From contig QCRN01000006.1 in assembly GCA_003211835.1 (NCBI GenBank), forward strand, positions 2,545-66,544: DNA of 64,000 bases, read 5' to 3'. Source of the stretch: Pelagibacteraceae bacterium AG-461-B04. GTDB lineage: Bacteria > Pseudomonadota > Alphaproteobacteria > Pelagibacterales > AG-422-B15. Shown here piece after piece: positions 16,137-40,695 of this stretch. Below the pieces are notes generated by a model. The model was given only the letters and a program-made list of their open reading frames with translations, ran no database searches and was not told the origin of the DNA. The translations under genes were made by a program, and so were the position numbers. Within the stretch, counting starts at the first letter, position 1. Every line of letters begins with the position of its first letter.

Positions 16137-16759
16137 CTCTCTCGCTTTACCCAGCCTTTTTTATATTTGCATTAATAATGGTTACCACACCCGGACCTGC
16201 CAATCTATTATTGATGAGTTCTGGTGCTCAACATGGACTACTCAAATCATTGCCATTTGTTGCCGGTGTTACTGTTGGAAAACTTTTTTTAACCATTGGG
16301 CTTGGAATTGGATTTTTGTCTTTATTAAATTCTAACCCGATTATAATTAATTTAATTAAAATTGCTGGAACAGGTTATATTTGCTGGTTGTCTTACAAAA
16401 TAATGTTTCTAAATTTAAAGCCAACTTCTAACACAGACTCTGAAAATAAAGTACCCAATTTTTTTAATGGTATTTTAGTACACCCTCTTAATCCTAAAGG
16501 TTGGGCCATGGTGATTGCTGCCTACACTCAATTCACTTCTTTTGGAAGTACAAGCTCAACTTCAAACTGGACACTCGAAGTTTTAATTATAGCCTCAACA
16601 TTTTTTTTAATACAATCAGTTTCCCACTCAGTATGGTGCTGGACAGGAAGTCTTATTTTTAATTTTCTAAGTCAAAAAAATTTTTTGCGTCAATCTATAG
16701 TTTTTATTTTAGCTATACTCACAGTCGGTACTGTTATTTATAGTAATTTTTTTATTTAA
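16133..16759 (+). CDS. LysE/RhtB-family amino-acid exporter
   Basis: 208 aa, 6 TM, N-terminal TPGPANLL motif typical of LysE/RhtB. ATGA overlap with pdxA. Confidence 0.75.
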   Translation: MTLSLYPAFFIFALIMVTTPGPANLLLMSSGAQHGLLKSLPFVAGVTVGKLFLTIGLGIGFLSLLNSNPIIINLIKIAGTGYICWLSYKIMFLNLKPTSNTDSENKVPNFFNGILVHPLNPKGWAMVIAAYTQFTSFGSTSSTSNWTLEVLIIASTFFLIQSVSHSVWCWTGSLIFNFLSQKNFLRQSIVFILAILTVGTVIYSNFFI

Positions 16760-17516
16760 TTTTCTTTAAACTATTTTTTTCAACGGATTCGCTAAAGCTT
16801 GCAAATAACTTTTTAGAAAAATCGTCAGTGGTCGCAGAATATTCAGGATGCCACTGTACACCAAAAAAATATCCACTATAGCCAGACAAACTTATTGCCT
16901 CCACTGTGTCGTCCTTGGCAACTCCTTCGGCAACTAATTCATTTGCTAATTCATCAATTCCTTGCGTATGTAGTGAATTCACCTCGATCGTCGGAGTGCC
17001 AGCTAATTTTTCGAATTTTCCATTTTCTTTTAAATAGACTTCATGTTGTTTAGAAAATTGTATGTCGGGATCACCAGACTCTGGGCATCGATGATCCATT
17101 CTGCCTGGCACCTCATGAATATCTGCATACAGCGATCCTCCCAAAGCAACATTAACTTCTTGAAAACCCCTACATATTGCAAGCATAGGGATCTCATTTT
17201 GAAATATAAAATCAATCATTGGCAGCACTGTCTTATCTCTGTCAATATCTAATGGTTCAACAATTTTATCTTTATTATAAAATTCTGGATAAACATTTGA
17301 AAGGCTTCCAGTTAATAAAACTCCATCAAATTTACGAAGTGTGTCTCTATAATCTACACTTGATCCAAATGCAGGAAGTATCACTGGTATACAGCTAGTA
17401 GCTTCAGAAACAGCCTTAATATAATTGGTTCCAGATGCGTGATAAGTTCGGTGCAACTCCTCTTTCTTAATTACATCTGCAAAAACAGCAATAAGTGGCT
17501 TATTTTGTGTATCCAT
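16752..17516 (-). CDS. gamma-glutamyl-gamma-aminobutyrate hydrolase-like class-I glutamine amidotransferase (peptidase C26, PuuD-like)
   Basis: 254 aa. Nucleophile block LAICRGFQ and GVQWHPE histidine block. Confidence 0.8.
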   Translation of the reverse strand: MDTQNKPLIAVFADVIKKEELHRTYHASGTNYIKAVSEATSCIPVILPAFGSSVDYRDTLRKFDGVLLTGSLSNVYPEFYNKDKIVEPLDIDRDKTVLPMIDFIFQNEIPMLAICRGFQEVNVALGGSLYADIHEVPGRMDHRCPESGDPDIQFSKQHEVYLKENGKFEKLAGTPTIEVNSLHTQGIDELANELVAEGVAKDDTVEAISLSGYSGYFFGVQWHPEYSATTDDFSKKLFASFSESVEKNSLKKIK

Positions 17517-17565
17517 AAAAGAAATTAGTTTACTAGTATTACCATAATATCATATAACAATTTTA

Positions 17566-18771
17566 ATGGTTATTAATATTCAAAATAAAGAAACTGAATT
17601 AAAATCTCTTTCTGCTTGGGATGATGTTCTTAATTTAGATGATCAGCTTTCTGCTGAAGAAAAAATATTACAATCAACAGTGCGAGCATACTGTAAAGAA
17701 AAATTGCTCCCAAGAATAATTGATGACAATAGAAATGAGAATTTTAGTAGGGAAATCTTTACTGAAATGGGAGAACTGGGTCTTCTCGGATCGTACTTAG
17801 ATGGTTATGGATGTGCGGGGAGCAATTATGTCTCTTACGGACTAATTACTCGTGAGATAGAAAAAATCGACAGCGCATATCGATCTATCATGTCAGTGCA
17901 AACAAGCTTGGTAATGTTCCCTATACATAAATTTGGAAGCGATGAACAAAAAGAACATTATCTACCGAAACTGGCAAAAGGAGAATTGATAGGTAGTTTT
18001 GGACTCACTGAACCTGATGCTGGTAGTGATCCAGGTGCAATGAAAACTAAAGCAGTAAAAGTAAAAGGTGGATATGAATTGAATGGAACAAAAACATGGA
18101 TCAGTAATGCGCCTTATGCTGATGTAATAATTATTTGGGCTAAGGATGAAGAAAATGTAATTAGAGGTTTCATTGTTGATAGGGACTCAAAAGGTCTCTC
18201 CACTCCGAAGATAGAAGGAAAATTATCGCTAAGGGCATCGGCAACAGGACAAGTGATTATGGAAAATGTATTTTGCCCTGAAGATAAAATTTTACCTAAA
18301 ACAATTGGTTTAAGTGGACCTTTTCAATGTTTAAATAGTGCTCGTTATGGAATTTCATGGGGTGCAATTGGAGCAGCTGAATTTTGTCTGGCAACTGCAA
18401 GACAATATGCTCTAGATAGAAAAATGTTTGGTAAGCCGATTGCGGGGACACAGTTAGTTCAATCTAAATTAGTAGATATGCAAACGGAAATTGCTTTAGG
18501 GTTGGAGGCCGCATTAAGAGTCGGGCGCCTTATGGATAAAGGTCAATCTGACAGCAATATGGTAAGCTTAATCAAAAGAAATAATGTTTCTAAAAGTTTG
18601 GAAATATGTCGTAACGCTAGAGATATTTTAGGTGGAAACGGTATTTCAGATGAGTATCATGTTATGAGACATATGGTTAACTTAGAAACTGTAAAAACTT
18701 ATGAAGGAACACATGATGTTCACACATTGATAATGGGAAGAAATTTAACAGGTATTCAGGCATTTAAATAA
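17566..18771 (+). CDS. gcdH: glutaryl-CoA dehydrogenase
   Basis: 401 aa. [30 protein letters not shown]...[19 protein letters not shown] matches the GCDH-specific version of acyl-CoA dehydrogenase blocks. C-terminal [14 protein letters not shown]. Confidence 0.85.
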
Positions 18772-18775
18772 AATT

Positions 18776-20143
18776 ATGGCATATCTAAACAGAACTACTA
18801 AGCAATGGCAGGAGATTGACACCAAACACCACCTCCATCCCTTTACTGACTATAAGTCACTTGCTGAAGAGGGAAGTATCATTGTAACAAAGGCAGACGG
18901 TGTACACCTGACTACATCTGATGATAAGCAGCTATTGGATGCAATGTCTGGGCTTTGGTGTGTTAATGTGGGCTATGGCCGAAAAAATCTTGCTGAAGTT
19001 GCTTATAAGCAAATGCAAGAGCTTCCATATTATAATTCTTTTTTTAAAACTGCAACGCCACCATCAATCGAGCTAGCAAGAGAATTAGCAGAGTTAAGCC
19101 CTCATGATTTAAATCATGCATTCTTTTCATCAAGTGGTTCAGAAGCCAATGACACAGTTGTAAGAATGGTGAGAAGATATTGGGACCTAAAAGGTAAGCC
19201 ACGTAAGAAAACTTTTATCAGCAGAGAGTTTGCTTATCATGGTAGTACAATGACGGGCATGAGCCTTGGTGGGATGACTGCAATGCATGCGCAAGGCGAT
19301 ATGATGCCTGGTTTTGAACATGTCTTGCCACCTTATTGGTATAAATACGGAAACAAGATGTCTCATGAAGATTTTGGAATTTTTGCAGCAAATAAAATTG
19401 AAGAAAAGATCAATGAAATAGGTGCTGATAATGTAGCAGCATTTATTGGTGAGCCAATTCAAGGCGCTGGGGGTGTAATTATTCCTCCAGACACTTACTG
19501 GCCTAGAGTTCAAGAGATATGTAATCAGTATGATATTCTTCTTATAGTTGATGAAGTTATTTGTGGATTTGGAAGAACAGGTAATTGGTTCGGATCTGAC
19601 ACGTATAATATCAAACCCGATATCATCACAATGGCCAAAGGCATAACTTCAGGCTACATACCACTATCAGGCATCATGATTGGAGACCGTGTTAGTGATA
19701 CAATTATTAATGAAGGTGGAGAGTTTTATCACGGCTATACATATTCAGGTCATCCAGTAGCGTGCGCTGTAAGTCTTGAAAATCTGAGAGTTATTAAAGA
19801 AGAAAATCTTATTGAGCAATCACGTCAAGTATCAATCTATCTAGAGCAACAAATGCGCGAGATTGAAAAACATCCGCTAGTTGGAGAAGTCAGGATGAAA
19901 AGTTTTATTGGAGCTGTTGAATTAGTTAAAGATAAAGAAAAGATGGAAATGTTTGAAGATACAGGAGTTGTAGGAACAATATGTAGAGATTATTGTATTG
20001 AAAATGGCTTAGTAATGAGAGCGGTCAGAGATGGTATGATTTTCTGTCCACCTCTAATCTTTAATAACTCGCATGTAGATGAATTATGTGAAAAACTAAA
20101 AAAATCTTTAGATCAAACACATAATCATATTTCTAAATCGTAA
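18776..20143 (+). CDS. class-III (omega) aminotransferase, SpuC/putrescine- or beta-alanine-pyruvate transaminase-like
   Basis: 455 aa. HHLHPFTD, SGLWCVNVGYGR, DEVICGFGRTG and MAKGITSGY (PLP lysine) blocks. Confidence 0.85.
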   Translation: MAYLNRTTKQWQEIDTKHHLHPFTDYKSLAEEGSIIVTKADGVHLTTSDDKQLLDAMSGLWCVNVGYGRKNLAEVAYKQMQELPYYNSFFKTATPPSIELARELAELSPHDLNHAFFSSSGSEANDTVVRMVRRYWDLKGKPRKKTFISREFAYHGSTMTGMSLGGMTAMHAQGDMMPGFEHVLPPYWYKYGNKMSHEDFGIFAANKIEEKINEIGADNVAAFIGEPIQGAGGVIIPPDTYWPRVQEICNQYDILLIVDEVICGFGRTGNWFGSDTYNIKPDIITMAKGITSGYIPLSGIMIGDRVSDTIINEGGEFYHGYTYSGHPVACAVSLENLRVIKEENLIEQSRQVSIYLEQQMREIEKHPLVGEVRMKSFIGAVELVKDKEKMEMFEDTGVVGTICRDYCIENGLVMRAVRDGMIFCPPLIFNNSHVDELCEKLKKSLDQTHNHISKS

Positions 20144-20571
20144 CTATAGAACTCATTGTCCCTGATATATCCAAGTGACTCATAAAGAGATTGGCCAGGT
20201 ATATTAGCTTTATTTGTTGAAAGCTCTATGGAGCCAAATTTATTCTCAGTTGCATAATTTTTAGCAGCATCCATTAAAGACTTAGCTATACCTTTTCTTC
20301 TAAACTCTTCTCTTACAAATAAGTCGTATAGAACAATTTTTTTTCTTACATTCACTGAGTCAAAAGTTGGATATAATTGTGTAAAGCCTGCACAAGTACT
20401 ACCTTCTTTCTGAAAAAAGATGATTGACTCATTATTCTCAAGCCTCTGCTTGATATATTTTTGTGCAATTTCAACATTTGACTCCTGGCTATAAAAGACT
20501 CGGTACAAATTAAAAACCTCTCCGATCATATCAGAGTATTCTATGGTTGCTCTTTTAATATTTTCTGTCAT
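20125..20571 (-). CDS. GNAT-family N-acetyltransferase
   Basis: 148 aa. Acetyl-CoA motif A REEFRRKGIAKSLM. Confidence 0.8.
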   Translation of the reverse strand: MTENIKRATIEYSDMIGEVFNLYRVFYSQESNVEIAQKYIKQRLENNESIIFFQKEGSTCAGFTQLYPTFDSVNVRKKIVLYDLFVREEFRRKGIAKSLMDAAKNYATENKFGSIELSTNKANIPGQSLYESLGYIRDNEFYSYDLEI

Positions 20572-20572
20572 C

Positions 20573-21730
20573 TTAGTTTCTTATAGTTCTATAAATTGAA
20601 ATCATTAAGAAAATAAAAGTAAAAAATACAATTGTATATATAAAACCAAAAGGACCAAAAATATCCATAACTCTTCCCCCAATCAGTGGACCAATTAATG
20701 AACCACACTCAAAAACCATAACTAATATTGCCGTTGCACCTGCAACCTGTGAAGCGGTATATCTTTCCCCCAACATTGTGAGCGATATTGAGAATATACC
20801 ACTAGCTGCTCCTCCCCAAACAAAGCAGCTTAATGCCACTAAATAGAAGTTTCCTAAGAAAACACCTATAATTATTGGACAAACAAAAGTACAGAAGACA
20901 GCAATATTCATGAGCAGTCTCTTATTCATTCTATCAAGTAAAATACCAATTAGTGGTTGACATATGACACCACCAACTAAGGTAATAGTGACAAACTGAA
21001 GAGCAATGTCTTGTGAAAACTGGTTCTTAATCATAAAGATTGGAAAAAATGAAACGAACATAACATCGTCCAATCCACAGAGTATTGCTGCTCCAAAAAT
21101 AGTCGGTGCGGCTATAATCGTTGCTAAAACTGGAAGAGATTTTTTCTCAGGCAATTCTTGATCTGCTATATCAAGTGTTATGAGTGGGATAATTGCTATA
21201 AATGACATTGCCGCAATCACAATAAATGGAAGCCATCCTTCGATACCTGTTAAAGATATAACAAGAGGACCTATTGCAAGACCAATTATAAATACTGTAT
21301 TGTATATTGTGACTATTTTACCGCGATTTGAGTCATTAGCCATCGATAACATCCAAGTATCAAAAGCATTCCATGCAAGTGCTCCTGCAAATCCAATAAG
21401 GAAGCGTATAATGAACCACGCAGTTAAGCTTTCAAATATAGGAAAGGTAAAATATAAAATAATTGTAACTATTTGAGCAATGATAATTGATCTAGATAAC
21501 CCAATTGCATGAATAATGATTGGTGTAATTCTTACAAATAAAATTACTGCCAATGGTTGAGCTACAACATTTAATCCAATTTGTGTATTACTGAAGCCTC
21601 TTGACTCAAGTATTAATGATAATAAGGGAATAAGGGTACCAAGTTTTATGCCAATAATAAGAGCACATAAAAATAAAACAATATACGTTTTATAATTACT
21701 TCCAAGTATAGATTGAAAAGTTGAAATCAC
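20573..21730 (-). CDS. MFS transporter
   Basis: 385 aa, 12 hydrophobic helices. Sits between the TetR and GNAT genes with a 4-nt overlap and a 1-nt gap. Confidence 0.8.
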   Translation of the reverse strand: MISTFQSILGSNYKTYIVLFLCALIIGIKLGTLIPLLSLILESRGFSNTQIGLNVVAQPLAVILFVRITPIIIHAIGLSRSIIIAQIVTIILYFTFPIFESLTAWFIIRFLIGFAGALAWNAFDTWMLSMANDSNRGKIVTIYNTVFIIGLAIGPLVISLTGIEGWLPFIVIAAMSFIAIIPLITLDIADQELPEKKSLPVLATIIAAPTIFGAAILCGLDDVMFVSFFPIFMIKNQFSQDIALQFVTITLVGGVICQPLIGILLDRMNKRLLMNIAVFCTFVCPIIIGVFLGNFYLVALSCFVWGGAASGIFSISLTMLGERYTASQVAGATAILVMVFECGSLIGPLIGGRVMDIFGPFGFIYTIVFFTFIFLMISIYRTIRN

Positions 21731-22386
21731 ACAAACCGTTTTTCATCTGTATAAATATTTTTAAAGTATTTTTTTATTAGTCCTTTACAAAATACATGTG
21801 AGTACATTTTAGGATCAAATAAAATTCTTTGCCATAATCCGTCTACCATTGAAAGATAAGTTTCACTTATTTCTCTTGGCGTCAGAAAAGTCTGATCAGT
21901 TAAAAAATTTAATTCTTTAATTAACTTTTCCATCTGAGATGAATATATTTCATCTTGCTTTTGACAGATTGTTAAATAAGAAGGACGAAATTTTACTTCA
22001 CTATAAAACGATACCCAGACTGCAATTTTATTTCTACTTGCAATTTTACTACTAAAATCATTTTCAATTATTTTGATTACTCTTCCAACTGGATCTAAGT
22101 TATTATCTTCGAATATTCGTTGCCAAGAATTTTTATATTCATCTGATAGAAATTTTAGTGAACTAAGCAAAAGATTTTCTTTAGATTTAAATCTAAAATT
22201 TGCATAACCTTGTGATACCATTGCTTTCTTAGCTACTTGCGCAATCGTCGTGTCTGCGAGACCTCTTTTGGCTATAGTTTCAATTGTTGCGTCAATTAGT
22301 TTTTGATGATTGATTGAAAATTCCTGTTCTTTCAGTTGAGGATTACTAATTTTTTTGGGATTTATATTCATTAAAGAACCATACAC
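21727..22386 (-). CDS. TetR-family transcriptional regulator (N-terminal HTH looks BetI-like)
   Basis: 219 aa. HTH region LIDATIETIAKRGLADTTIAQVAKKAMVSQGYANFRFKSKENLL. Confidence 0.85.
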   Translation of the reverse strand: MYGSLMNINPKKISNPQLKEQEFSINHQKLIDATIETIAKRGLADTTIAQVAKKAMVSQGYANFRFKSKENLLLSSLKFLSDEYKNSWQRIFEDNNLDPVGRVIKIIENDFSSKIASRNKIAVWVSFYSEVKFRPSYLTICQKQDEIYSSQMEKLIKELNFLTDQTFLTPREISETYLSMVDGLWQRILFDPKMYSHVFCKGLIKKYFKNIYTDEKRFV

Positions 22387-22412
22387 AAAGTTTAATCATA
22401 ATGGTAGTTTTG

Positions 22413-22432
22413 TATTGAATAATCATTCAATA
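22413..22432. promoter_or_regulatory. palindromic operator in the divergent TetR / flavoprotein promoter region
   Basis: TATTGAAT-AATC-ATTCAATA, with perfect 8-bp arms. The TTGAAT in each arm can serve as a -35: + strand TTGAAT 22415-22420, N16, TATCAT 22437-22442; minus strand TTGAAT (complement of 22425-22430), N18, TACCAT (complement of 22401-22406). Confidence 0.6.
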
Positions 22433-22466: not shown

Positions 22467-24095
22467 ATGCCAAAAAATACTCATGATGTAATTGTTGTAG
22501 GAGCCGGCCATAATGGCTTAACAGCGGCTAGTTATATGGCTAAAGCTGGGCTCGATGTTGTCGTTTTAGAAAAAAATGATTGGATTGGCGGTGCTGCAGT
22601 GAGCCGAGAACTGTACCCTGGATGGAAATATTCAAATTGTTCCTATGTTTGTAGTTTATTAAGACCTGAGATCATGCGTGACTTGGAACTTTATAAATAT
22701 GGACTTCAAATTATTCCTTATGAAGGCAGTGCAACGATGATGAAAAATGGAGATTATTATACTCATTATCATGATCATGATATGACCATCAACTCTATTA
22801 GACGTCATTCTCATAAAGATGCAGAAGCTTATGAAAGATATAGCCGCGATGTTCTTAGGCAATGTAAAATTATTAAGCCTCTTCTTAAAATGACGCCTCC
22901 TGACTTAACATCGTTCAAACCAAAAGATTTATTTGGAGCGCTGGAGTTTGCAAAGCATTTTGCTGCAAAAGATGAATTAGGTGGACTAGGAGAAAAAGAA
23001 ATTTATGACACAATTCGCTTCTATACGATGAGCATCAGAGATTACTTAGAAGAATATTTTGAAAGTGAAATTACCAAAGCTCACCTTGCTGGCAGCGCTA
23101 TTATTGGAACTGCTCTGGGCCCATGCTCACCAGGATCAGCTTATGTATTGTTGCATCATTACATGGGTGAAGTTGACGGATCAGTTGGTTCATGGGGATA
23201 TGCACGAGGTGGAATGGGATCTATTACTCAGGCAATGATGGGTTGTCTAAAAGATCATGGAGGAGAAGTAAAACCAAGCAGCGAAGTAACAAATGTTATT
23301 ACAAAAAATGGAAAAGCAATCGGTGTTGCTACACAAAATGGAGATGAATACTATGCTAAGAAAATAGTCTCCAACCTTGATGTCAAAAGAACTTTTTTAA
23401 AGATTACTGAAGAGAAGGACCTTCCAGATGATTTTGTACGAAGTGTTAAAAATTTTAAGATAAGGGGTTCATCTGGTAAATTAAATATAGCATTAGATGG
23501 CTTACCAGACTTTCCTTGTATTCCTGAAGGTGATCCAGGCGGTGGCGGAGACATGCATTTCACAGAAACGATAGAAGAGATGGAAGGAGCTTACGATGAT
23601 TGGAAAAGGGGAGAATGGTCTCGTAATCCATATGTTGATATGTGCATTCCATCAAAAAGTGACCCTACAATGGCTGAGCCAGGTAAACATTATATGTCTG
23701 TATTTATTCAGTATGTACCATTTAACCTTGCAAATGGTGGTTGGAATGAAGAGAGAAAGCAAGAATTTGGAAGACACATAGTTGATTGTATTGCAGAGTT
23801 TTCTCCTAACTTTAAAGACCTAATTAATCATTATGAGGTACGTACACCACTAGAATTAGAAAACGAAGTTGGTTTGACAGAAGGCAATATTTTTCAAGGA
23901 GAGTTGACCATGGACCAATTAATGTTCAATAGGCCAGTTCCAGGATATGCGCAGTATAGGACTCCATTAAAAAATATGTATATATGTAGCTCTTCAACAC
24001 ATCCAGGCGGAGGTGTAATGGGCGCACCAGGAGCTAACGCAGCTCGTGAAGTTCTATTAGACATGAACGTTCCACAAAAAGGAAATTATTATTAA
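22467..24095 (+). CDS. FAD-dependent oxidoreductase, CrtI/phytoene-desaturase / amine-oxidase superfamily (COG1233-like), copy 1
   Basis: 542 aa. Dinucleotide fold VIVVGAGHNGLTAASYMAKAGLDVVVLEKNDWIGGAA. C-terminal STHPGGGVMGAPGANAA. Confidence 0.8.
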   Translation: MPKNTHDVIVVGAGHNGLTAASYMAKAGLDVVVLEKNDWIGGAAVSRELYPGWKYSNCSYVCSLLRPEIMRDLELYKYGLQIIPYEGSATMMKNGDYYTHYHDHDMTINSIRRHSHKDAEAYERYSRDVLRQCKIIKPLLKMTPPDLTSFKPKDLFGALEFAKHFAAKDELGGLGEKEIYDTIRFYTMSIRDYLEEYFESEITKAHLAGSAIIGTALGPCSPGSAYVLLHHYMGEVDGSVGSWGYARGGMGSITQAMMGCLKDHGGEVKPSSEVTNVITKNGKAIGVATQNGDEYYAKKIVSNLDVKRTFLKITEEKDLPDDFVRSVKNFKIRGSSGKLNIALDGLPDFPCIPEGDPGGGGDMHFTETIEEMEGAYDDWKRGEWSRNPYVDMCIPSKSDPTMAEPGKHYMSVFIQYVPFNLANGGWNEERKQEFGRHIVDCIAEFSPNFKDLINHYEVRTPLELENEVGLTEGNIFQGELTMDQLMFNRPVPGYAQYRTPLKNMYICSSSTHPGGGVMGAPGANAAREVLLDMNVPQKGNYY

Positions 24096-26844: not shown

Positions 26845-26862
26845 ATTGAACAGCTGTTCAAT
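26845..26862. promoter_or_regulatory. second copy of the operator, overlapping a sigma70 promoter
   Basis: ATTGAACAGCTGTTCAAT is a perfect 18-bp palindrome with the same arms as 22413..22432. TTGAAC (26846-26851), N17, TATAAT (26869-26874). The ATG at 26880 lies only 5 nt after the -10. Confidence 0.65.
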
Positions 26863-26879
26863 TTAGGCTATAATGATTC

Positions 26880-33970: not shown

Positions 33971-34000
33971 CCTGCCCTCAAGAGAGAACAGGCTATTTTA
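33968..34000. terminator. bidirectional intrinsic terminator between convergent potA-like and binding-protein genes
   Basis: TAGCCTG (33968-33974) pairs with CAGGCTA (33989-33995), with 3 further inner pairs. Flanked by ATTTTATT on the + strand and TTTTTTA on the minus strand. Confidence 0.65.
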
Positions 34001-34019
34001 TTACTCAATTAGCAGTGAA

Positions 34020-35099
34020 TTAACCGCCAGCTACCATTTCAGCCCACTGAGCTTCCATGTAGTCAGTAACTTCGTCAGTTGGCATCACAGAGAACATTCC
34101 ATTATTTAAATGTTCGATAGGATTTGATGCAACACCACGCTCAGCTAATTCCTCAGCAGTAAGTGTGCTAAAGCCAGCTTTATTGCTGTGTCCATAACCC
34201 CACTCACTTAATAAGTATGCAGATGTTTCAGCGCTAGTAGCACCGTTAATCATTGCGTATGCTTTATCAAGGTCTGCACCTTTAACAATCGCAAGACCAC
34301 ATGCCCAAGTCATTGTGCCATTAGCAGGCTGCATCATTTTTGCTCCTGCACTCCATGCTATTTCGTTCCATCCAAGTGCTACGTCTATTTCCTCGTTTCC
34401 TAGCGCTTCAATCATTGAAGATGTATCTCCAAAGAATGCACGAATTTGACCATTATCTCTCATTTCACGAAACTTATCGATACCTTGGTCAATAGCAGCT
34501 TTCGTTAATTGATCTTGTTCTCTGATATCAATTCCAAGATGGTGCATCATTAAAAACAAAGAGTCTGCAGCGGAGTCTAAGATACCAACTTTACCTTTTA
34601 CTCTTGGGTCTTCCATTAGTGCAAAACTTTCATTAGAGGCATCCATCCAATCGACTCTGTCTGCCATGTAAAACAATGTAGTGTCTCCCCAGTCGACTGG
34701 TGCAAAATAATGCTTACCATCAACCATACCACTTGGCAGGTCTCTAACTTCAGGGAACATATCATCCCAGTTGTCAATTCTTGACGGATCAAGTGGCTCT
34801 AATACGCCGGCTCTTACCCATCTTTTTATTTCACCTTGGCAAGGCCATGCTAAGTCAACTTCAAAGCCTGCTTTAAGCTTTTGCAATCCCTCTTCAGCAT
34901 CACCAAATATTGAGTATTCGGGGGAACCATGCTCTGCAGCGTATGATCCAAATAGGCCATCATCATCATAGCCACCCCACAAGAAGACTGATCCAGGTCC
35001 TGGTTTAGACTGTGCAACTTCTTCTTCTTGTTGAGAACATCCAGCTATAAGAGCTATTAAAGCTGCTCCTAATAAAACTGTAAAAATTGATTTTTTCAT
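34020..35099 (-). CDS. periplasmic polyamine-type substrate-binding lipoprotein (PotD/PotF family)
   Basis: 359 aa. Lipobox LIAGC. Size and Trp/Asp/Glu-rich composition typical of PotD/PotF-type binding proteins. Adjacent to the potBCA-like genes. Confidence 0.75.
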   Translation of the reverse strand: MKKSIFTVLLGAALIALIAGCSQQEEEVAQSKPGPGSVFLWGGYDDDGLFGSYAAEHGSPEYSIFGDAEEGLQKLKAGFEVDLAWPCQGEIKRWVRAGVLEPLDPSRIDNWDDMFPEVRDLPSGMVDGKHYFAPVDWGDTTLFYMADRVDWMDASNESFALMEDPRVKGKVGILDSAADSLFLMMHHLGIDIREQDQLTKAAIDQGIDKFREMRDNGQIRAFFGDTSSMIEALGNEEIDVALGWNEIAWSAGAKMMQPANGTMTWACGLAIVKGADLDKAYAMINGATSAETSAYLLSEWGYGHSNKAGFSTLTAEELAERGVASNPIEHLNNGMFSVMPTDEVTDYMEAQWAEMVAGG

Positions 35100-35133
35100 T
35101 ATTAATCATCCTTTTTTTTTATTTATACTAAAA

Positions 35134-35161: not shown

Positions 35162-35165
35162 TATA

Positions 35166-36662
35166 TTAAAAGTGAATCAAAGGACGATTTTTGCTGGAAT
35201 TGAGCCATGGATCTAACATTTCGTAGTTGTACCCACCCTGGAATACTAATTCATCACAGTACGATCGAGCAATAATTTGGATTCCTGTTGGAATATTGCT
35301 AGAGCTTAATCCTGAAGGGACTGATAGGACCGGTAATTTACCCAACATGTTAAACGGATGTGACATAACCCAAGAAAAATCAGCACACTTCTGCTCTTTA
35401 TTATTGATAACGATATTTTCATTAACAATATCAATATCAGCCTTAATGGAAGGTAAAGAGTTTGTAGGACATATAAATAAATCGTAACTGTCTAATATTG
35501 GTCCAATTTCTGAATACATACGGCCTGTGATTTCTGAGCTTTCAATAACATCATATCCAACATAAGCCCCTATTTGATCATGATAGTACTTCTCATTATT
35601 TTGTATCGCTCTTAAATGTAATTCAGGGACTTCAGCAAACATTTTTGCATAATCAGTTAGTAGTTTTTTTTCATCGTTTGAAAATTTTGCTATGAGGCCA
35701 TAAAATGAATTAGCGTAATGACTAAAGCAAACTGAATTTACTTCATCTCGATTCCAATTTAATTTTACTTCTGTAATTGTTGCGCCAAGAGCCTCAAATT
35801 TTTTCAGAGCCTCCAATGTATTTTTTTCAACTTCTTCATCCACCTCAAAAAATCCAAGATCAAGTGAATAAGCAATTTTCCAGTTCTTAATATTCTCAAA
35901 CTTATTAGGAATAATTTTTTTGGGTCTGAGTGAAGCAATATCATTTTTATTTGGACCACTCATAACATTCTGCATAAGGGCACAATCACTAACTGTTCTC
36001 GCAAGGGGACCAACAACACAATACGGATCATGATTAAAAGGATAACCCATTGGATTTCTTCCATAGGGAGGTTTGTAACCAACGACTCCGCAGGCCCCAG
36101 CAGGGATACGAATTGATCCACCTATATCACTACCAGTTGCAAGTGATGCACAACCTGACGCTAGTGCTGCAGCACTCCCCCCACTTGAACCTCCTGGTGT
36201 CATATCTAAGTTCCAGGGATTTCTTGTGACGCCATTAACTTTGGAATGGCAGAATGATGTCAGTGAAAATTCTGGGTTAGTTGTGCGTGCATGAATTATT
36301 GCACCAGAGCTTACAAGGGACTCTACATCTACGTCAGTTCCTTCTGCTATTACGTCTTTATAGATTAAGCTTCCATTCTTATTAGGTTGTCCCTTTATAT
36401 TAACTTCATCTTTAATTGCTAAAGGTAAACCTTCCAAAGGCAAAGTAGATTTATCTTCAGTATATTTTAATTCTGAATGTTTCGCTTCTTTCAATGCTTC
36501 TTCGAAGCGAAAAAAATTAAAAGCATTAATTTTTGGGTTTACATTTTCAATTCTTTTTATTGTCTCATTTAATAGCTCAACTGGAGACAAAGATTTATTT
36601 TTAAATTTTTCTAGGGCTTCAGAAGCTGATAAATAACAAATATCGAGGTCTAAACTACTCAT
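35166..36662 (-). CDS. amidase-signature family amidase
   Basis: 498 aa. AIKDE (catalytic Lys region) and GGSSGGSAAALASG signature with GSDIGGSIRIPA. Confidence 0.85.
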   Translation of the reverse strand: MSSLDLDICYLSASEALEKFKNKSLSPVELLNETIKRIENVNPKINAFNFFRFEEALKEAKHSELKYTEDKSTLPLEGLPLAIKDEVNIKGQPNKNGSLIYKDVIAEGTDVDVESLVSSGAIIHARTTNPEFSLTSFCHSKVNGVTRNPWNLDMTPGGSSGGSAAALASGCASLATGSDIGGSIRIPAGACGVVGYKPPYGRNPMGYPFNHDPYCVVGPLARTVSDCALMQNVMSGPNKNDIASLRPKKIIPNKFENIKNWKIAYSLDLGFFEVDEEVEKNTLEALKKFEALGATITEVKLNWNRDEVNSVCFSHYANSFYGLIAKFSNDEKKLLTDYAKMFAEVPELHLRAIQNNEKYYHDQIGAYVGYDVIESSEITGRMYSEIGPILDSYDLFICPTNSLPSIKADIDIVNENIVINNKEQKCADFSWVMSHPFNMLGKLPVLSVPSGLSSSNIPTGIQIIARSYCDELVFQGGYNYEMLDPWLNSSKNRPLIHF

Positions 36663-36714
36663 AAGATTATTTTATTTTAATTTATTAATTAATAAAATAT
36701 ATTGAATTCACACC

Positions 36715-37809
36715 ATGATTGATCAAAACATTAGAGACATTATTAAAAACCAAGACCCTAATACGGGAATGGATCAGCTTTTTTTCACCAACAAAGCATT
36801 GTTTGATCTAAGTTATGAGGCTGTTTTCAAGAAACAGTGGGTATTTCTTACTCATCTATCTTATTTTAATGAAAACAATACATTCATTTATCAAATTAAT
36901 GGCGGGTTTGTTGAAATAAAAAAGTCTAAAGATAATAATTTTACTATCTCATCATCTTTACCTGATATCAAATGTCATTTAAAAGTTTATGAAAGCTTAA
37001 TTTTTGTCAACTTTTCTGAAGTACCATATTCATTTGAAGAATTCATAAAACCACTAGAACCATATATTAAAATTCATGGCCTTAATGACGGCAAGATCGC
37101 ATTTCAAAAAGACTTTATATTTAATGCTTCCCATCTCGCAACCATTCACAACTTCAAAGAATGTGCACATTGTTGGGGAGGTGAGTTTACTCATAAAGAT
37201 TATTTAAGTGTTCATGGAGAGGCGTATTGTAATTCTTATGGAGCTGGGGTTGGCTCAGGAATTGAATCTCCTGAATTCAATCAACGTATAAAAGATTGGA
37301 CATTAGAAAGTCAAAATAAAGGTTTGTTTGTTGGCGAGTACAGTGAAGACACCAATAAATATTTTAGAATTGCAGAGCGCACTCCTTTACCTGAAGGCAT
37401 TATGTCTGAGACAATGGATGGTAGCTATTCATGCTCTTCATTAATGGGTGACTTTAAAACTATAGGACCAGATCATGGTTATACCGCTATTGGTTTTAGC
37501 CCATTCAATAGCTTTGTTGCCAATAATGAATTTGTAATTCTTTTTTTATTTACTCCTGTTAGTCAAAATAAAACAATCGTTACTCAATTTTGGGTTACTC
37601 ACAAAGATGCTGAAGTTGACATTGATAAAATGATTTTTCTTTGGGACCAAACGTCAACAGAAGACTCCCAATTGTGTGAAATGAATCAAAAGGGCATTGA
37701 AAGTCGAGCTTATCAGCCTGGAAAGTACGGCGAACTTGAGACAAGTTTGGTTCAATATCAAAAGTTCTATCTAAGTCATTTACAAAATCACGTTAATGGA
37801 CTGACTTAA
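36715..37809 (+). CDS. Rieske-oxygenase alpha-subunit paralogue lacking the Rieske cluster (catalytic-domain-only protein)
   Basis: 364 aa, collinear with ORF 28283..29521: FKKQWVFLTH / FKQWLMVDH, CHLKVYESLIFVNFS / CHMNIYQGLIFINLS, NFKECAHC / NFQECYHC, LWDQTSTEDSQLCEMNQKG / IWDVTTAHDTTIIENNQNG. The roughly 45 residues carrying CxH and CxxH are missing. Confidence 0.7.
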   Translation: MIDQNIRDIIKNQDPNTGMDQLFFTNKALFDLSYEAVFKKQWVFLTHLSYFNENNTFIYQINGGFVEIKKSKDNNFTISSSLPDIKCHLKVYESLIFVNFSEVPYSFEEFIKPLEPYIKIHGLNDGKIAFQKDFIFNASHLATIHNFKECAHCWGGEFTHKDYLSVHGEAYCNSYGAGVGSGIESPEFNQRIKDWTLESQNKGLFVGEYSEDTNKYFRIAERTPLPEGIMSETMDGSYSCSSLMGDFKTIGPDHGYTAIGFSPFNSFVANNEFVILFLFTPVSQNKTIVTQFWVTHKDAEVDIDKMIFLWDQTSTEDSQLCEMNQKGIESRAYQPGKYGELETSLVQYQKFYLSHLQNHVNGLT

Positions 37810-37823
37810 GTCAGGGATATAAA

Positions 37824-39194
37824 ATGGAAGTTGCTACACAAGCTGAATTTGATGAAGTATTAAGTCAGCACAATAATATTCAATATGTCGATGCAATCTT
37901 CACAGATTTATGTGGCTATGTAAGAGGAAAACGTTTCCCCGTCCTTGAAGCAAATAAAATTTTTTCAGATGGCGTTCTTCTCCCATTCTCCGCATTTTAT
38001 CTAGATGTTCTAGGAGGAGTAACAAACACCCTAAATCTAGGTTGGACAGATGGTGATCCTGATGGTGTTCTGGTTCCTGTTAAAGGAAGTATTAAGCCAG
38101 TCCCGTGGGATGAACGCTTCTTACAGGTATTAATCACAATGAGAAAAGAGCAAGAAAATTGGGGAGTGATACAAGACCCATCTGAGGTTGACCCTAGAAA
38201 TATTCTAAAAAAAGTTATGAAGAATTTTAAGAACACTGGATTGAAGCCTGTGGCTGCTTTTGAATTAGAATTTTATCTTTTAGACAAAAATAGGGATGAG
38301 TTTGGGAAACCAATACCTGCTGAAGGTGCTAATAAAACACATGTTTATGGCATGCCAGACCTTGATCTCTTCGGTAAGTTATTTGATGATATTAACAAGA
38401 ATTGCGAAATGCAAAATATACCAGCGACTACTGCTTCAAGTGAATTTGCTGCGGGACAGTATGAAATTAATCTAAAGCACACTGGAGATCTTCTAAAAGC
38501 CGCAGATGATGCTGCTTTATTAAGACGTATTATTAAAGAGACAAGTGAACGACATGGCTATGAAGCAACATTTATGGCAAAACCCTTTCTAGATCAAACT
38601 GGTAATGGAATGCATCTTCATCTCTCCGTTTATGATGAAAATGAAAAAAATATATTTGCTACTTCCAATCGTTACGGAAATAAAAAATTAAAAAGTGCTA
38701 TAGCTGGTTTTCAATCAATGTTTTATGATAGTTTTCCAATCTTTATTCCAAATCGAAATGGTTACAGAAGAATAGAAACAAGAAATTTCGTTCCTGTTAA
38801 TACAAGTTGGTCCTGGAATCGAAGAGATGTTTCATTAAGAATACCAGCTGGATCAAATGACGCAAAAAGAATTGAACATCGCGTAGCTTCATCAGATGCT
38901 AATCCTTATCTAGTACTAGCATGCTTATTAGCAGGGTTGCATAATGGCCTTACTAATGAATTGACCCCATCGAACCAAGTTGATTTTGATAATAATGAAG
39001 GAGCGGATAAAGAAGCCGATATTGATATGCCAAAAAATATGGACCAAGCGTTAGCGCGTTTCCAGTCTTCCAAACTATTAAAAAAATATCTTGGGAAAGA
39101 ATACCTTGATCTTTATACTGCTGCAAAACAAGGTGAAATTGATCATGTCGAGTCAAGTTTTGTTCCTCGAGAGGAATATGATCTCTATTTATAA
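37824..39194 (+). CDS. glutamine-synthetase-family gamma-glutamyl-amine ligase (PuuA/PauA/GmaS-like)
   Basis: 456 aa. FELEFYL, SEFAAGQYEINLKH, NGMHLHLSV and RIEHRVASSDANPYL blocks of the GS catalytic domain. Confidence 0.8.
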   Translation: MEVATQAEFDEVLSQHNNIQYVDAIFTDLCGYVRGKRFPVLEANKIFSDGVLLPFSAFYLDVLGGVTNTLNLGWTDGDPDGVLVPVKGSIKPVPWDERFLQVLITMRKEQENWGVIQDPSEVDPRNILKKVMKNFKNTGLKPVAAFELEFYLLDKNRDEFGKPIPAEGANKTHVYGMPDLDLFGKLFDDINKNCEMQNIPATTASSEFAAGQYEINLKHTGDLLKAADDAALLRRIIKETSERHGYEATFMAKPFLDQTGNGMHLHLSVYDENEKNIFATSNRYGNKKLKSAIAGFQSMFYDSFPIFIPNRNGYRRIETRNFVPVNTSWSWNRRDVSLRIPAGSNDAKRIEHRVASSDANPYLVLACLLAGLHNGLTNELTPSNQVDFDNNEGADKEADIDMPKNMDQALARFQSSKLLKKYLGKEYLDLYTAAKQGEIDHVESSFVPREEYDLYL

Positions 39195-39196
39195 TC

Positions 39197-39910
39197 ATGA
39201 CTGAATTACTTTTTAACAATGATGCTTACCTCACTCAGTCTGAAGCTGTTGTTACAAATATCGATCAAAACTCTATTCAACTAAATCGAACAATTTTCTA
39301 CGCTGAGTCAGGCGGACAGCCGGGCGATCAAGGAGAGATCATCTTAGGAGATCAAATTTATAAAGTTACTGACACCCAGAAAGGCAATTCTCCAAATGAA
39401 ATTATTCATTTAGTCGACAGTGATATTGATCAGAGCATTGTTGGTAAAGAATGTGAGATCAAAATTGATTGGGAATTGAGACAAAGTCATATGAGAATGC
39501 ATACCTCATGTCATATTCTGTGTAGTTTGATTGACGCTTTAATTACAGGTGCTTCAGTTGGTGCACAAAAAAGTAGAGTTGATTTTGATGTTGACCCGAG
39601 TTTGCTTGATAAAGAGGCAATGAATCAACAGATTGATGAAATTATCAAAAATAATTTTCCTGTATTCACAAAACAAATTTCTGGAGATGAATTTAGAGAT
39701 AATCCCCATTTAGCAAAAGGCGCTGCTGTTAGCCCTCCCATAATTGATAACAAAGTACAAATTGTTCAAATTGGTGAAGACAAAATTTTAGATATACAGG
39801 CGTGTGGAGGCACTCATGTGAGATCAACGGGTGAGATTAAAGGATTAGAGATTGGAAAAATTGAAAATAAAGGTAAAAGAAACCGAAGAGTGAACATAAG
39901 GTTTAAATAA
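39197..39910 (+). CDS. AlaX-like protein (Ala/Thr-tRNA-synthetase second additional domain, metal-dependent hydrolase)
   Basis: 237 aa. Zinc motifs HTSCHIL (HxxxH) and CGGTHV (CxxxH). Confidence 0.7.
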   Translation: MTELLFNNDAYLTQSEAVVTNIDQNSIQLNRTIFYAESGGQPGDQGEIILGDQIYKVTDTQKGNSPNEIIHLVDSDIDQSIVGKECEIKIDWELRQSHMRMHTSCHILCSLIDALITGASVGAQKSRVDFDVDPSLLDKEAMNQQIDEIIKNNFPVFTKQISGDEFRDNPHLAKGAAVSPPIIDNKVQIVQIGEDKILDIQACGGTHVRSTGEIKGLEIGKIENKGKRNRRVNIRFK

Positions 39911-40695
39911 TGACGAATATTCTCATCAGAAGTGATAAAAATTCAGTTACTACATTAAGTTTGAATGACCTTCCAGCAAACAGTCTAAGTATGCCTATGA
40001 TGGGAGAAATTCAAGATGAACTAACAAGTATTGATCATGATGACTCTATTCGAGTTGTAATTATAAAATCTGAAAGTGATAAAATATTTTCCTCAGGACA
40101 TAATTTAAAAGAGGTAAAAGGCTTTCTTGATAATAATGATACTAAATCTCAAGTTGAATTATTTTCAACGTGTTCCTCAATGATGAAAAAAATTCAGGCT
40201 TTAAGTAAGCCAGTCATTGCGCAGGTCAGAGGCATAGCAACTGCAGCTGGTGCACAATTAGTCGCCTCATGTGATTTAGCTTATGGATCATTAGACTCAA
40301 AATACGCAACTCCAGGAGTAAATATTGGATTATTTTGTCATACACCTCAAGTTGCTGTCTCAAGGACAATCGGCAGAAAACCAATGATGGAAATGTTGTT
40401 AAGTGGAGAACCGATTTCGTCTGAAAGGGCTGTACAAATTGGATTGATCAATGCTGCGGTTGATAGTGCAGATTTAGAAAAAATAGTTGAAAAGTCATGC
40501 AATGATATTTGTAATAAATCAGCTGCCGTTATTGCCATGGGAAAGAAAAGTTTCTACCGTCAAAGTGAAATGCCATTAACTGACGCTTATGACTTTACGA
40601 GTGCAGAGATGGTAAGGAATTTAACACTCAATGATGGCAACGAGGGAATATCTTCTTTTCTTGAAAAAAGAGATCCAAACTGGTCTAACGACTAA
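39910..40695 (+). CDS. enoyl-CoA hydratase/isomerase (crotonase) family protein
   Basis: 261 aa. FSSGHNLKE and RGIATAAGAQLVASCDL oxyanion-hole blocks. 1-nt overlap (TAATG) with the upstream gene. Confidence 0.8.
   Translation: MTNILIRSDKNSVTTLSLNDLPANSLSMPMMGEIQDELTSIDHDDSIRVVIIKSESDKIFSSGHNLKEVKGFLDNNDTKSQVELFSTCSSMMKKIQALSKPVIAQVRGIATAAGAQLVASCDLAYGSLDSKYATPGVNIGLFCHTPQVAVSRTIGRKPMMEMLLSGEPISSERAVQIGLINAAVDSADLEKIVEKSCNDICNKSAAVIAMGKKSFYRQSEMPLTDAYDFTSAEMVRNLTLNDGNEGISSFLEKRDPNWSND

Follow-up and report, generated by a model that had tools for sequence, protein, structure and literature searches.

The 64,000-nucleotide stretch of Pelagibacteraceae bacterium AG-461-B04 considered here (contig QCRN01000006.1, positions 2,545 to 66,544; hereafter the window) comes from the SAR11 bacteria, the most abundant heterotrophs of the surface ocean, whose use of dissolved organic nitrogen (DON) is under revision. 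An earlier note on this DNA had read the genes between positions 16752 and 40695 as one 24-kb amine-catabolic unit on a gamma-glutamyl/Pot backbone, to which two CrtI-like flavoproteins and a GcvT-family protein were attached as an unassigned extra. Comparative data invert this picture. The CrtI1-CrtI2-GcvT triad is the centre of a cluster that is widespread across Proteobacteria and soil lineages and, together with a class-III aminotransferase (AT3b), a Rieske oxygenase, a TetR-family repressor and an importer, forms the conserved core of the region. Our verdict is that the region consists of this TetR-controlled core and of lineage-specific accessories, and is neither an indivisible pathway nor pure coincidence. 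On the best reading, the core comprises tetR-MFS-GNAT, CrtI1/CrtI2/GcvT and AT3b plus the Rieske oxygenase, and is served by a Pot-type importer (31195-35099). On balance, we lean towards the view that it strips methyl groups stepwise from a methylated or quaternary omega-amine, by oxidation linked to folate, and that the demethylated amine is then transaminated.

Genes were called from open reading frames (ORFs) together with Pfam and NCBIfam profile searches, and equivalog assignments were judged against the NCBIfam cut-offs; every gene named in the earlier note was recovered at its position and in its family. The triad lies on the forward strand and is made up of CrtI1 (22467-24095; Amino_oxidase, DAO and NAD_binding_8 matches), its divergent partner CrtI2 (24095-25612) and a GcvT-family folate-dependent aminomethyltransferase (25613-26812; GCV_T and GCV_T_C). 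CrtI1 and CrtI2 are paralogues with 29% identity, and the dinucleotide-binding motif is present in both. Neither reaches the crtI_fam cut-off of 238 (94.8 bits for CrtI1, 86.3 for CrtI2) nor that of the CrtO model, which is the best named match of both (288 and 170 bits, cut-off 1000), and the closest solved structure is CrtI 4dgk at 66.6 bits. A carotenoid role was rejected on the basis of these sub-threshold family scores and of gene context: among the triad neighbourhoods that were annotated or scanned for families, none showed a carotenoid gene. Apart from the dinucleotide-binding motif, the two flavoproteins have no sequence relation to SoxB. The GcvT-family protein finds its best NCBIfam match in the folate-binding C-terminal part of trimethylamine N-oxide (TMAO) demethylase (275 bits); it misses the cut-off of the housekeeping GcvT model PRK00389 (234.6 bits, cut-off 300), and its neighbours are CrtI-like genes, not gcvH or gcvP. 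The combination of a flavoprotein with a GcvT-type folate domain is analogous in architecture to the folate-linked N-demethylases of the sarcosine oxidase and dimethylglycine dehydrogenase (DMGDH) type.

CrtI1 is the predicted catalytic subunit of such an N-demethylase, and GcvT its predicted C1 acceptor subunit. In the distant SAR11 relatives (loci L011, L013 and L014) CrtI1 is 92-94% identical to the window protein, as compared with 68-75% for CrtI2, 63-66% for the amidase and 59-75% for the ligase resembling glutamine synthetase (GS-like) described below. Since CrtI1 is far more conserved than CrtI2, the pair suggests a catalytic and an auxiliary subunit, as in heterotetrameric sarcosine oxidase; two sequential demethylases with one common GcvT are the alternative. 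An AlphaFold model of CrtI1 built on a 12-sequence alignment has a mean pLDDT of 67.5, with values below 50 in its most conserved loops (211-249 and 469-496). The 90% cluster of CrtI1 has 754 members, and the exact CrtI1 sequence occurs on 240 contigs. No NCBIfam model reaches threshold on the triad, public labels for its members are generic ('phytoene dehydrogenase-like', 'NAD(P)/FAD-dependent oxidoreductase', 'aminomethyltransferase family protein'), and a full-text literature search found no paper describing an enzyme of two CrtI-like proteins plus GcvT, or this cluster.

The triad was found in 88 loci of marine, soil and freshwater bacteria. Wherever the locus extends far enough, the genes next after CrtI1 encode a divergent CrtI-like protein (32-44% identity to SAR11 CrtI2) and a GcvT-family protein. 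Outside SAR11, CrtI1 homologues are 71-74% identical in the nearest group (marine metagenome proteins) and 66-67% identical in Rhodospirillaceae, Kiloniellales and Gammaproteobacteria. A further 80 loci, many of them from soil, peat and freshwater, came from a metagenome scan, at 62-65% CrtI1 identity; the single genome-collection scan found only close relatives. For neighbour counts, all ORFs of 92 loci were clustered and scored on the 24 loci from outside SAR11 that have 7 kb or more on each side (the well-flanked foreign loci), and the counts are lower bounds. GcvT is present in 24 of these 24 loci, a PotA-type ATPase in 22, a class-III aminotransferase in 21, PotB in 20, PotC in 19, the binding protein in 19, a Rieske-family oxygenase in 18 and a BetI-type TetR in at least 13. 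The omega-aminotransferase is the most constant enzymatic partner of the triad. Other families recur less often, namely acyl-CoA dehydrogenase (ACAD) and aldehyde dehydrogenase (9/24 each), the GS-like ligase and a TonB receptor (7/24 each), ADP-forming acyl-CoA synthetase (6/24), BKACE and enoyl-CoA hydratase (ECH; 5/24 each), a carnitine-dehydrogenase/thioesterase fusion (4/24) and a DAO-family oxidoreductase (2/24).

Several of these clusters are single-operon examples. On a Fuscovulum plasmid the genes run in a single direction as TetR / AT-CrtI-CrtI-GcvT-RHO-RHO-SBP-ATPase-permease-permease (AT, aminotransferase; RHO, ring-hydroxylating oxygenase; SBP, solute-binding protein), and Rhodospirillaceae provide a further case. 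A Parasedimentitalea plasmid combines two 'SRPBCC' oxygenase-like genes, TetR, the triad, AT, GNAT, an Old Yellow Enzyme (OYE)-type flavoprotein, SBP, two RHO genes and ABC parts, and a gammaproteobacterial contig carries TetR, the triad, AT, DAO, GS and SBP. GNAT and/or MFS genes recur beside the triad in L032, L105 and L107.

Within SAR11, all Pelagibacteraceae loci of sufficient length share the gene order AT3a-GNAT-MFS-TetR-CrtI1-CrtI2-GcvT-AT3b-Rieske-DAO-PotBCA-SBP-amidase-Rieske-less-GS(-AlaX), among them the three lineages (L011, L013 and L014) with proteins only 60-90% identical, and PuuD-gcdH-AT3a precede this block in L024, L025 and L029. Relatives with identities down to about 78% retain the series from AT3a to AlaX. 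The claim that this is an amine-catabolic neighbourhood is borne out, and the neighbourhood is conserved in SAR11 relatives. A comparison of module presence, one of the checks proposed in the earlier note, shows the whole order to be stable in SAR11; 17 of the 24 foreign loci are without the GS-like gene, and PuuD, gcdH and AT3a were found to accompany the core in no locus outside SAR11.

Three loci show features of their own. In L032, from a marine metagenome, CrtI1 is only 72% identical to the window protein, as compared with 83-90% for the binding protein and the ABC parts, and the gene order differs; the importer and the enzymes of the cluster seem to have separate histories. Locus L017, a 7.3-kb contig labelled Marinoscillum sp. 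(a Bacteroidota single-cell genome), holds a Rieske oxygenase (46%), two CrtI-like genes and GcvT in a different order, and reflects either horizontal transfer or mis-binning. On the Fuscovulum ytuae plasmid (L108, 24647-27899) the triad/Rieske/ABC operon continues into a 'dimethylsulfoniopropionate lyase family protein', an amidohydrolase and a methyltransferase; the first two have no NCBIfam match at E <= 1e-20.

A palindrome is predicted to link the repressor to the core. The TetR-family repressor (21727-22386, reverse strand) has the TetR_N + TetR_C_6 architecture, with a BetI-type C-terminal domain, and misses the BetI equivalog TIGR03384 (97 bits, cut-off 201). It shares its operon with an MFS transporter (20573-21730, reverse strand; Pfam MFS_1) and, as the last gene, a GNAT N-acetyltransferase (20125-20571, reverse strand; assigned by Pfam). 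The motif ATTGAA-N6-TTCAAT has two exact matches in the window, against 0.06 expected, a number reached in only 1 of 100 shuffles. Operator 1 (22414-22431, ATTGAATAATCATTCAAT) lies in the divergent tetR/crtI1 promoter region, where the intergenic sequence holds TATTGAATAATCATTCAATA, and operator 2 (26845-26862, ATTGAACAGCTGTTCAAT) lies upstream of AT3b; neither is assigned a strand. They overlap the -35 elements of the sigma-70-like promoters TTGAAT-16-TATCAT and TTGAAC-17-TATAAT, respectively, the only two promoters used from a scan in which total promoter and terminator counts were no better than in shuffled sequence. Both operators are kept in every SAR11 locus that covers them, distant ones included, and the same motif closely precedes the aminotransferase gene of Rhizobium sp. 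SL42 (L104, 21661-21678) and the CrtI1 gene of metagenome contig L069. With up to two mismatches allowed, no copy was found at the PuuD/gcdH, DAO/Pot, SBP/amidase and amidase/Rieske-less promoters. From the operator positions, the predicted TetR regulon would comprise tetR-MFS-GNAT, crtI1-crtI2-gcvT and AT3b-Rieske. It would thus coincide with the comparative core except for the importer, where an operator site is lacking, and would not extend to the whole 24 kb. Overlapping genes and a common operator had been taken in the earlier note as signs of a single organised unit. The overlaps are real and the operator exists, but it serves two promoters only and is absent from four others, and start/stop overlaps are weak evidence of a unit because tight gene packing is the norm in SAR11 genomes.

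In soil, peat and freshwater loci (L095, 5588-7237; L091, 3858-5579; L107, 20662-21602) TetR is fused to a C-terminal module resembling a Rieske oxygenase alpha subunit, in which the first cluster motif has decayed from CxH to CTEAPH. Such a fusion is called in one database entry as a protein of 617 aa with TetR_N, TetR_C_6, Rieske and Ring_hydroxyl_A domains. The window TetR is 33% identical to the TetR part of the fusions found in soil loci, and the fused oxygenase fold may have been reused as the ligand sensor of the repressor.

The second operator precedes AT3b (26880-28283, forward strand), a class-III (omega) aminotransferase that exceeds the PRK07036 cut-off (654.9 bits, cut-off 618). 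Its matches in the PDB are 3i5t (444 bits), pyruvate-dependent gamma-aminobutyrate (GABA) transaminases (322-331 bits) and putrescine transaminase (320 bits), and copies with 50-59% identity adjoin the triad in foreign loci of the AT3b type. The gene that follows (28283-29521, forward strand; Rieske + Ring_hydroxyl_A) encodes a Rieske oxygenase alpha subunit with all of the expected motifs, namely the CSH + CPYH cluster motif, H-x4-H and the conserved Asp. It is 94-99% identical to its counterparts in Pelagibacteraceae single-cell genomes and 78-79% identical to those of more distant Pelagibacterales. Its structure matches are 3n0q, an uncharacterised putative ring-hydroxylating dioxygenase (249 bits), the stachydrine demethylase Stc2 (243 bits) and CntA (150 bits); the best NCBIfam match, the GbcA equivalog, is missed at 305 bits (cut-off 670). 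A Cys-x-x-Cys pair beside the iron site, the mark of group V, quaternary-ammonium oxygenases (PMC10952381), reads ECYHC in this enzyme and ECAHC in its Rieske-less paralogue, and is invariant in the alignment. By these matches and motifs the enzyme is a group V oxygenase of the quaternary-ammonium type.

The importer is complete in its architecture, with PotB-type and PotC-type permeases (two BPD_transp_1 domains) and a PotA-type ATPase with TOBE domain (31195-33970, forward strand; Pfam), and a periplasmic binding protein of the PotD/PotF family (34020-35099, reverse strand; SBP_bac_8). The binding protein belongs to that family only distantly, scoring 45.6 bits on the PotF model (cut-off 636). 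When it is aligned to PotF, the residues W37, Y40, W244 and Y314 are kept, F276 is replaced by W and E185 by D; D247 becomes I and D278 becomes C in this low-scoring, indicative alignment. D247 and D278 are two of the three amine-binding acidic residues of PotF. An aromatic box with fewer acidic residues would suit methylated ammonium better than putrescine. A SAR11 protein annotated as PotD has been reported to bind glycine betaine and dimethylsulfoniopropionate (DMSP), not polyamines (Clifton et al., 2024; PMC11485210). A homologue search with the window binding protein, made to relate it to that betaine-binding protein (SAR11_1336), returned no named HTCC1062 protein.

Taken together, these elements suggest the following route. 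The imported substrate would be an N-methylated amine with a positive charge, an omega-trimethylammonio compound being the likeliest, and the group V Rieske oxygenase would take the first methyl group off the quaternary nitrogen, like Stc2 and GbcA. The CrtI1/CrtI2/GcvT complex, a putative functional analogue of sarcosine oxidase and DMGDH assembled from different flavoproteins, would then oxidise the remaining N-methyl groups and pass the C1 units to tetrahydrofolate, and AT3b would transaminate the resulting primary omega-amine to an aldehyde bound for central metabolism. An operon in L110 and L111, described below with the glycine betaine account, offers an independent natural analogue of this division of labour between a Rieske oxygenase and folate-linked demethylases. 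TetR, bound at ATTGAA-N6-TTCAAT, would keep both core promoters repressed and release them on binding the amine or an intermediate, and GNAT and MFS may acetylate and export surplus amine. The Rieske-less oxygenase, the GS-like ligase and the DAO-family oxidase would form a gamma-glutamylation module in the style of PauA/PauB, with PuuD, the amidase, gcdH, AT3a and ECH as further accessories; within this lineage, all accessories together would act on the amine of the core or on amines related to it.

As to the substrate, several enzyme families recur beside the triad in foreign loci. They include a PuuC/BADH-like aminoaldehyde dehydrogenase, ADP-forming acyl-CoA synthetase, ACAD, ECH, BKACE and a near-threshold carnitine 3-dehydrogenase-thioesterase (552 bits, cut-off 592); the ACAD has weak, sub-threshold similarity to several models, best to the acryloyl-CoA reductase AcrC and also to crotonobetainyl-CoA dehydrogenase. 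Acyl-CoA synthetase, ACAD, ECH, carnitine dehydrogenase-thioesterase and BKACE make up a butyrobetaine/carnitine enzyme set. Because enzymes of this type recur near the triad, and because gamma-butyrobetaine (TMAB), carnitine and beta-alanine betaine have been measured in ocean communities (PMC9321204), we favour an omega-trimethylammonio compound of the gamma-butyrobetaine/carnitine family, a choice that we hold with low confidence. Alternative candidates are beta-alanine betaine, delta-valerobetaine, choline-derived amines and N-methylated diamines. The gcdH and ECH of SAR11 would also fit a C5 skeleton such as that of delta-valerobetaine, 5-aminovalerate or cadaverine, and N-methylated diamines would account for the recurring polyamine-type neighbours. 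The substrates offered in the earlier note are in part upheld: a methylated or quaternary amine fits best, given the group V Rieske oxygenase, the likeness of GcvT to TMAO demethylase and the binding pocket. A classical putrescine/spermidine pathway is unlikely, because there is no PuuC, the equivalog scores are sub-threshold and the pocket is altered.

The window cluster has a second oxygenase gene. The protein encoded at 36715-37809 (forward strand) has a Ring_hydroxyl_A domain and is 26% identical to the Rieske enzyme, and the segment with both cluster-binding motifs is absent. Proteins of this Rieske-less form (364-366 aa) were recovered only as a high-identity group (at least 60%), of which the one named member is a Pelagibacterales metagenome-assembled genome; the nearest other relatives are Rieske-bearing proteins of 410-411 aa with 35-36% identity. 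In an alignment of 13 Rieske-less and Rieske-bearing sequences, a clean deletion in the Rieske-less clade removes both CxH and CxxH. The bridging Glu (E149), the Cys pair (C150 and C153), the two iron-binding His (H152 and H160) and the Asp (D317) are invariant throughout, and a short insertion between the two His residues is specific to the Rieske-less clade. The paralogue is a SAR11-lineage deletion variant that has kept its iron site, and it probably still binds iron. The TetR-fused degenerate module of soil loci was considered as the source of this gene and rejected, there being no detectable similarity. One Rieske-bearing relative stands in the context DAO / RHO / GS / DAO, from which we infer that oxygenase, GS-like ligase and DAO constitute a recurring separate module; in SAR11 the oxygenase member of this module has lost its cluster domain. 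In oxygenases of this type, the Rieske centre of one alpha subunit supplies electrons to the iron site of its neighbour (PMC7948474; PMC10952381). Since electrons cross between alpha subunits, a mixed oligomer of the Rieske-less protein with its paralogue at 28283 is a reasonable proposal for how it might remain active, in which the former may take electrons from the latter.

The remaining members of that module are the DAO-family FAD oxidoreductase (29803-31158, forward strand; PF01266, 175.7 bits), which resembles PauB/PuuB, and the GS-like gamma-glutamyl ligase (37824-39194, forward strand; Gln-synt_C, 299 bits), which resembles PauA/PuuA. The best NCBIfam matches of the former, pipecolate oxidase (153.6 bits) and the putative aminophosphonate oxidoreductase TIGR03329 (151.6 bits), are far below cut-off, and all matches of the latter are sub-threshold (GlnA 196, type III GS 195 and gamma-glutamylputrescine synthetase 187 bits, the last with a cut-off of 650). 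The Puu and Pot labels of the earlier note (PuuA, PuuB, PuuD, PotF) stand at the level of family only, all equivalog scores being far below cut-off. The two genes form a pair in L022, L053, L107 and L109, and one or both occur in the triad operon or adjoin it in several unrelated lineages (L022, L045, L053, L098 and L107); in L109 the Rieske-oxygenase/GS/DAO module stands on its own contig without the triad. By this distribution, the pair is an accessory that is joined to the core in some lineages only and is also found without it. In the 282-bp gap between the Rieske oxygenase and DAO genes lies a 72-aa ORF (29559-29777) with a hydrophobic, signal-peptide-like N-terminus and no Pfam match; among related SAR11 loci it occurs only in L015 (97%) and L012 (67%), and the spot is variable between close relatives.

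Of the other accessories, the amidase-signature amidase (35166-36662, reverse strand; PF01425, 292 bits) has an aryl acylamidase as its best PDB match (165 bits). It was matched in one foreign locus only, L036, where a 60% identical amidase lies between the GS-like and binding-protein genes. Because GS-like and DAO genes adjoin the triad in unrelated lineages, and in view of the L036 amidase, a functional link between gamma-glutamylation and the core is likely. Upstream of the core are a PuuD-like gamma-glutamyl amide hydrolase (16752-17516, reverse strand; Peptidase_C26, PF07722, 197 bits), which misses the gamma-glutamyl-GABA hydrolase equivalog PRK11366 (129.5 bits, cut-off 266), gcdH (17566-18771, forward strand) and a second class-III aminotransferase, AT3a (18776-20143, forward strand; Aminotran_3, 311 bits), which exceeds the PRK07480 cut-off (737 bits, cut-off 510). 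The gcdH product is a true glutaryl-CoA dehydrogenase, with 540 bits to the human enzyme GCDH (1siq) and 512 bits to that of Burkholderia over residues 17-400; the ACADs that adjoin the triad elsewhere are just 25-29% identical to it. The cluster ends with an AlaX (AlaXM)-like protein (39197-39910, forward strand) and an ECH (39910-40695, forward strand; ECH_1), which exceeds the PRK08139 cut-off (316.9 bits, cut-off 313). The former has intact HMRMH and CGGTH zinc motifs and scores 201 bits on the AlaXM model (cut-off 300); it was matched only in SAR11 loci, and in the relative L014 there is no AlaX match and an ECH match directly follows the GS-like gene. Its membership in the pathway is doubtful, and it may be a trans-editing factor caught in a compact genome. 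Both absences remarked upon in the earlier note were confirmed: the Pfam and ORF scan found no aldehyde dehydrogenase in 16752-40695, the nearest lying at 48283-49755 in a different operon, and no oxygenase reductase was detected in the window, as set out next.

Several observations weigh against the demethylation reading. No ferredoxin, FNR-type or cognate GbcB/CntB-type reductase was matched among the window ORFs scanned (all those of at least 100 aa and one of 90 aa). To our knowledge, members of the CrtI family are not known as N-demethylases, and the demethylase role of the triad is drawn from its GcvT partner and from context. Six of the 24 foreign loci have no Rieske-family oxygenase, and the Rieske oxygenases that adjoin the triad elsewhere are mostly 23-36% identical to the SAR11 one (44-48% in L017 and L018) and may not be its orthologues. 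The pocket alignment scores only about 58-61 bits, largely against engineered PotF variants, and the guess at the substrate is weak because carbon-skeleton enzymes vary between lineages. Furthermore, polyamine-type genes occur near related clusters, namely agmatine deiminase with N-carbamoylputrescine amidase, PauA/PauB-like (GS/DAO) pairs and, in L020 and L105, genes of the acetylpolyamine-amidohydrolase family; because such genes recur, an unmethylated polyamine stays among the possible substrates.

These last genes would be expected if the whole 24 kb served one pathway for a polyamine larger than or other than putrescine (spermidine, norspermidine or cadaverine), with gamma-glutamylation as its backbone and the other modules as extra steps. 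This account draws further on the Pot-type importer, the GS-like/DAO pair, the PuuD-like hydrolase and the two omega-transaminases, on the position of gcdH beside PuuD and AT3a, which fits a route from cadaverine through 5-aminovalerate to glutaryl-CoA, and on the entire order kept in SAR11. It leaves a folate-dependent GcvT partner and a quaternary-ammonium Rieske oxygenase without a role on unmethylated polyamines, and it meets a cluster with no PuuC-type aldehyde dehydrogenase, Puu and PotF equivalog scores all far below cut-off, an operator restricted to the core, a binding protein that has lost two of three amine-binding acidic residues, and PuuD, gcdH and AT3a that were not found with the core outside SAR11; we consider it quite unlikely. 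The opposite account, that adjacency is fortuitous and that the core, the GS/DAO/Rieske-less genes, PuuD-gcdH-AT3a, the amidase and AlaX serve unrelated substrates on amine islands of a compact genome, seems to us a little less improbable, though still unlikely. The limits of the operator speak for it, as do the L109 module without a triad, the 17 of 24 foreign loci without a GS-like gene (most lack GS-like or DAO), the missing AlaX match in L014 and the ordinariness of gene overlaps in SAR11. Yet GS-like and/or DAO genes do lie in or beside the triad operon in L022, L045, L053, L098 and L107, L036 likewise has an amidase gene between those for the GS-like ligase and the binding protein, the triad is commonly accompanied by two oxygenase paralogues, and the arrangement is stable across SAR11 lineages that are 20-40% apart in protein sequence.

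The core might also be an alternative glycine betaine pathway, in which the Rieske enzyme acts as GbcA and the CrtI/GcvT proteins as dimethylglycine and sarcosine demethylases, with glycine as the product. GbcA is indeed the best NCBIfam match of the Rieske enzyme, the regulator is BetI-like, carnitine dehydrogenase and BKACE genes, which are glycine-betaine-producing, recur nearby, and glycine is required by SAR11 (PMC12478193). A natural analogue also exists: an operon in L110 and L111 consists of LysR, two DAO-GcvT fusion demethylases and a Rieske oxygenase (in L110, Rieske + DMGDH/sarcosine dehydrogenase (SARDH)), the classical layout for stripping three methyl groups from glycine betaine. 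This explanation appears the least probable of those considered, as the GbcA score falls far under its cut-off, no GbcB was found in the window scan, the omega-aminotransferase of 21 of the 24 loci would have no role if the product were glycine, and betaine-homocysteine methyltransferase (BHMT), DMGDH and SARDH already serve this route in SAR11 (PMC3160333; PMC12478193).

The surroundings of the cluster are housekeeping or unrelated genes, with EamA, SLT, pdxA and LysE upstream and EamA, djlA and pdxH downstream, in a window with a G+C content of about 34%. A few kb upstream lies an error-prone repair pair, Peptidase_S24 (UmuD/LexA-like) followed by impB/mucB/samB (UmuC-type, Y-family polymerase), at 10981-12645. 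The region 5850-9834, which has the highest G+C of the window (0.38-0.39), encodes an 801-aa protein with a partial DUF3604 match only and then an ammonium transporter with a called start of TTG, and a metallo-beta-lactamase-type alkyl sulfatase (Lactamase_B + Alkyl_sulf_dimr + Alkyl_sulf_C) is found at 1490-3208. Downstream, pdxH and a 168-aa ORF without Pfam match precede a separate five-gene operon (44039-49755) for a luciferase-like monooxygenase, an enzyme dependent on thiamine pyrophosphate (TPP), AA_synth (PF06684), an alpha/beta hydrolase and the aldehyde dehydrogenase mentioned above.

Beyond the demethylation reading itself, we put forward a bolder and clearly more tentative proposal: that the triad represents a new class of heteromeric folate-dependent amine N-demethylase, widespread in ocean and soil bacteria, which in SAR11 works with a 'split' Rieske oxygenase to mineralise an under-recognised methylated amine of the DON pool. 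In such a split enzyme the catalytic subunit, iron-binding but Rieske-less, would draw its electrons from the Rieske-bearing paralogue. If the proposed chemistry of the triad is right, a reaction of a known kind is carried out there by a new enzyme architecture, in a very abundant organism and in many soil bacteria. The Rieske-less iron subunit and the TetR-oxygenase fusions of soil loci are additional unusual features. The core is common in marine metagenomes and conserved from SAR11 to soil bacteria, and assigning its function would add a route of C1 and nitrogen release from methylated amines and put right a systematic error of annotation in catalogues of ocean genes. The system lends itself to direct tests: its enzyme is encoded by three genes, its importer includes a binding protein, and the operator of its repressor is defined.

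Among known systems, the cascades GbcAB/Stc2, DgcAB/DMGDH/StcD and SoxBDAG/SARDH for glycine betaine and stachydrine are similar in three respects: the quaternary nitrogen is the target of a group V Rieske oxygenase, C1 is delivered to tetrahydrofolate by flavoprotein demethylases via a GcvT-type domain, and the regulator is of the BetI type. They differ in that the flavoproteins of the window belong to the CrtI/amine-oxidase family instead of the DAO or OYE type, with GcvT as a separate polypeptide, in that the core has an omega-aminotransferase, so that its end product would not be an alpha-amino acid such as glycine or proline, and in that the importer is of the Pot type, not ProU/Opu, and no reductase gene is nearby. 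SoxBDAG and N-methylglutamate dehydrogenase likewise pair a multi-subunit flavoenzyme with a folate-binding GcvT-like module, and in them, as in the triad, one subunit is highly conserved and presumably catalytic and the other nucleotide-binding subunit is more divergent; the triad has three genes, not four, and equivalents of SoxD and SoxG were not seen. The CrtI/CrtO carotenoid desaturases and ketolases share the fold family of both flavoproteins; these score far under the respective cut-offs and are constantly accompanied by GcvT, an aminotransferase and an ABC importer of the amine type. The enzyme families of the aerobic gamma-butyrobetaine/carnitine pathway recur beside the triad in other lineages, whereas the SAR11 window has ECH only, its ACAD being the glutaryl-CoA dehydrogenase. 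That pathway, as known, ends in glycine betaine and uses no CrtI/GcvT enzyme. Finally, the Pau/Puu systems of Pseudomonas and Escherichia coli resemble the accessory genes in having a GS-like ligase beside a DAO-family oxidase, a C26 gamma-glutamyl hydrolase and an omega-transaminase; unlike them, the window cluster is without a PuuC/PauC aldehyde dehydrogenase, has equivalog scores that are all sub-threshold, and keeps its ligase in one operon with a Rieske-type oxygenase subunit. A similar ligase/oxygenase pairing exists in the aniline (AtdA/TdnQ) and isopropylamine (Ipu) systems, in which the gamma-glutamylated amine is the substrate of the oxygenase.

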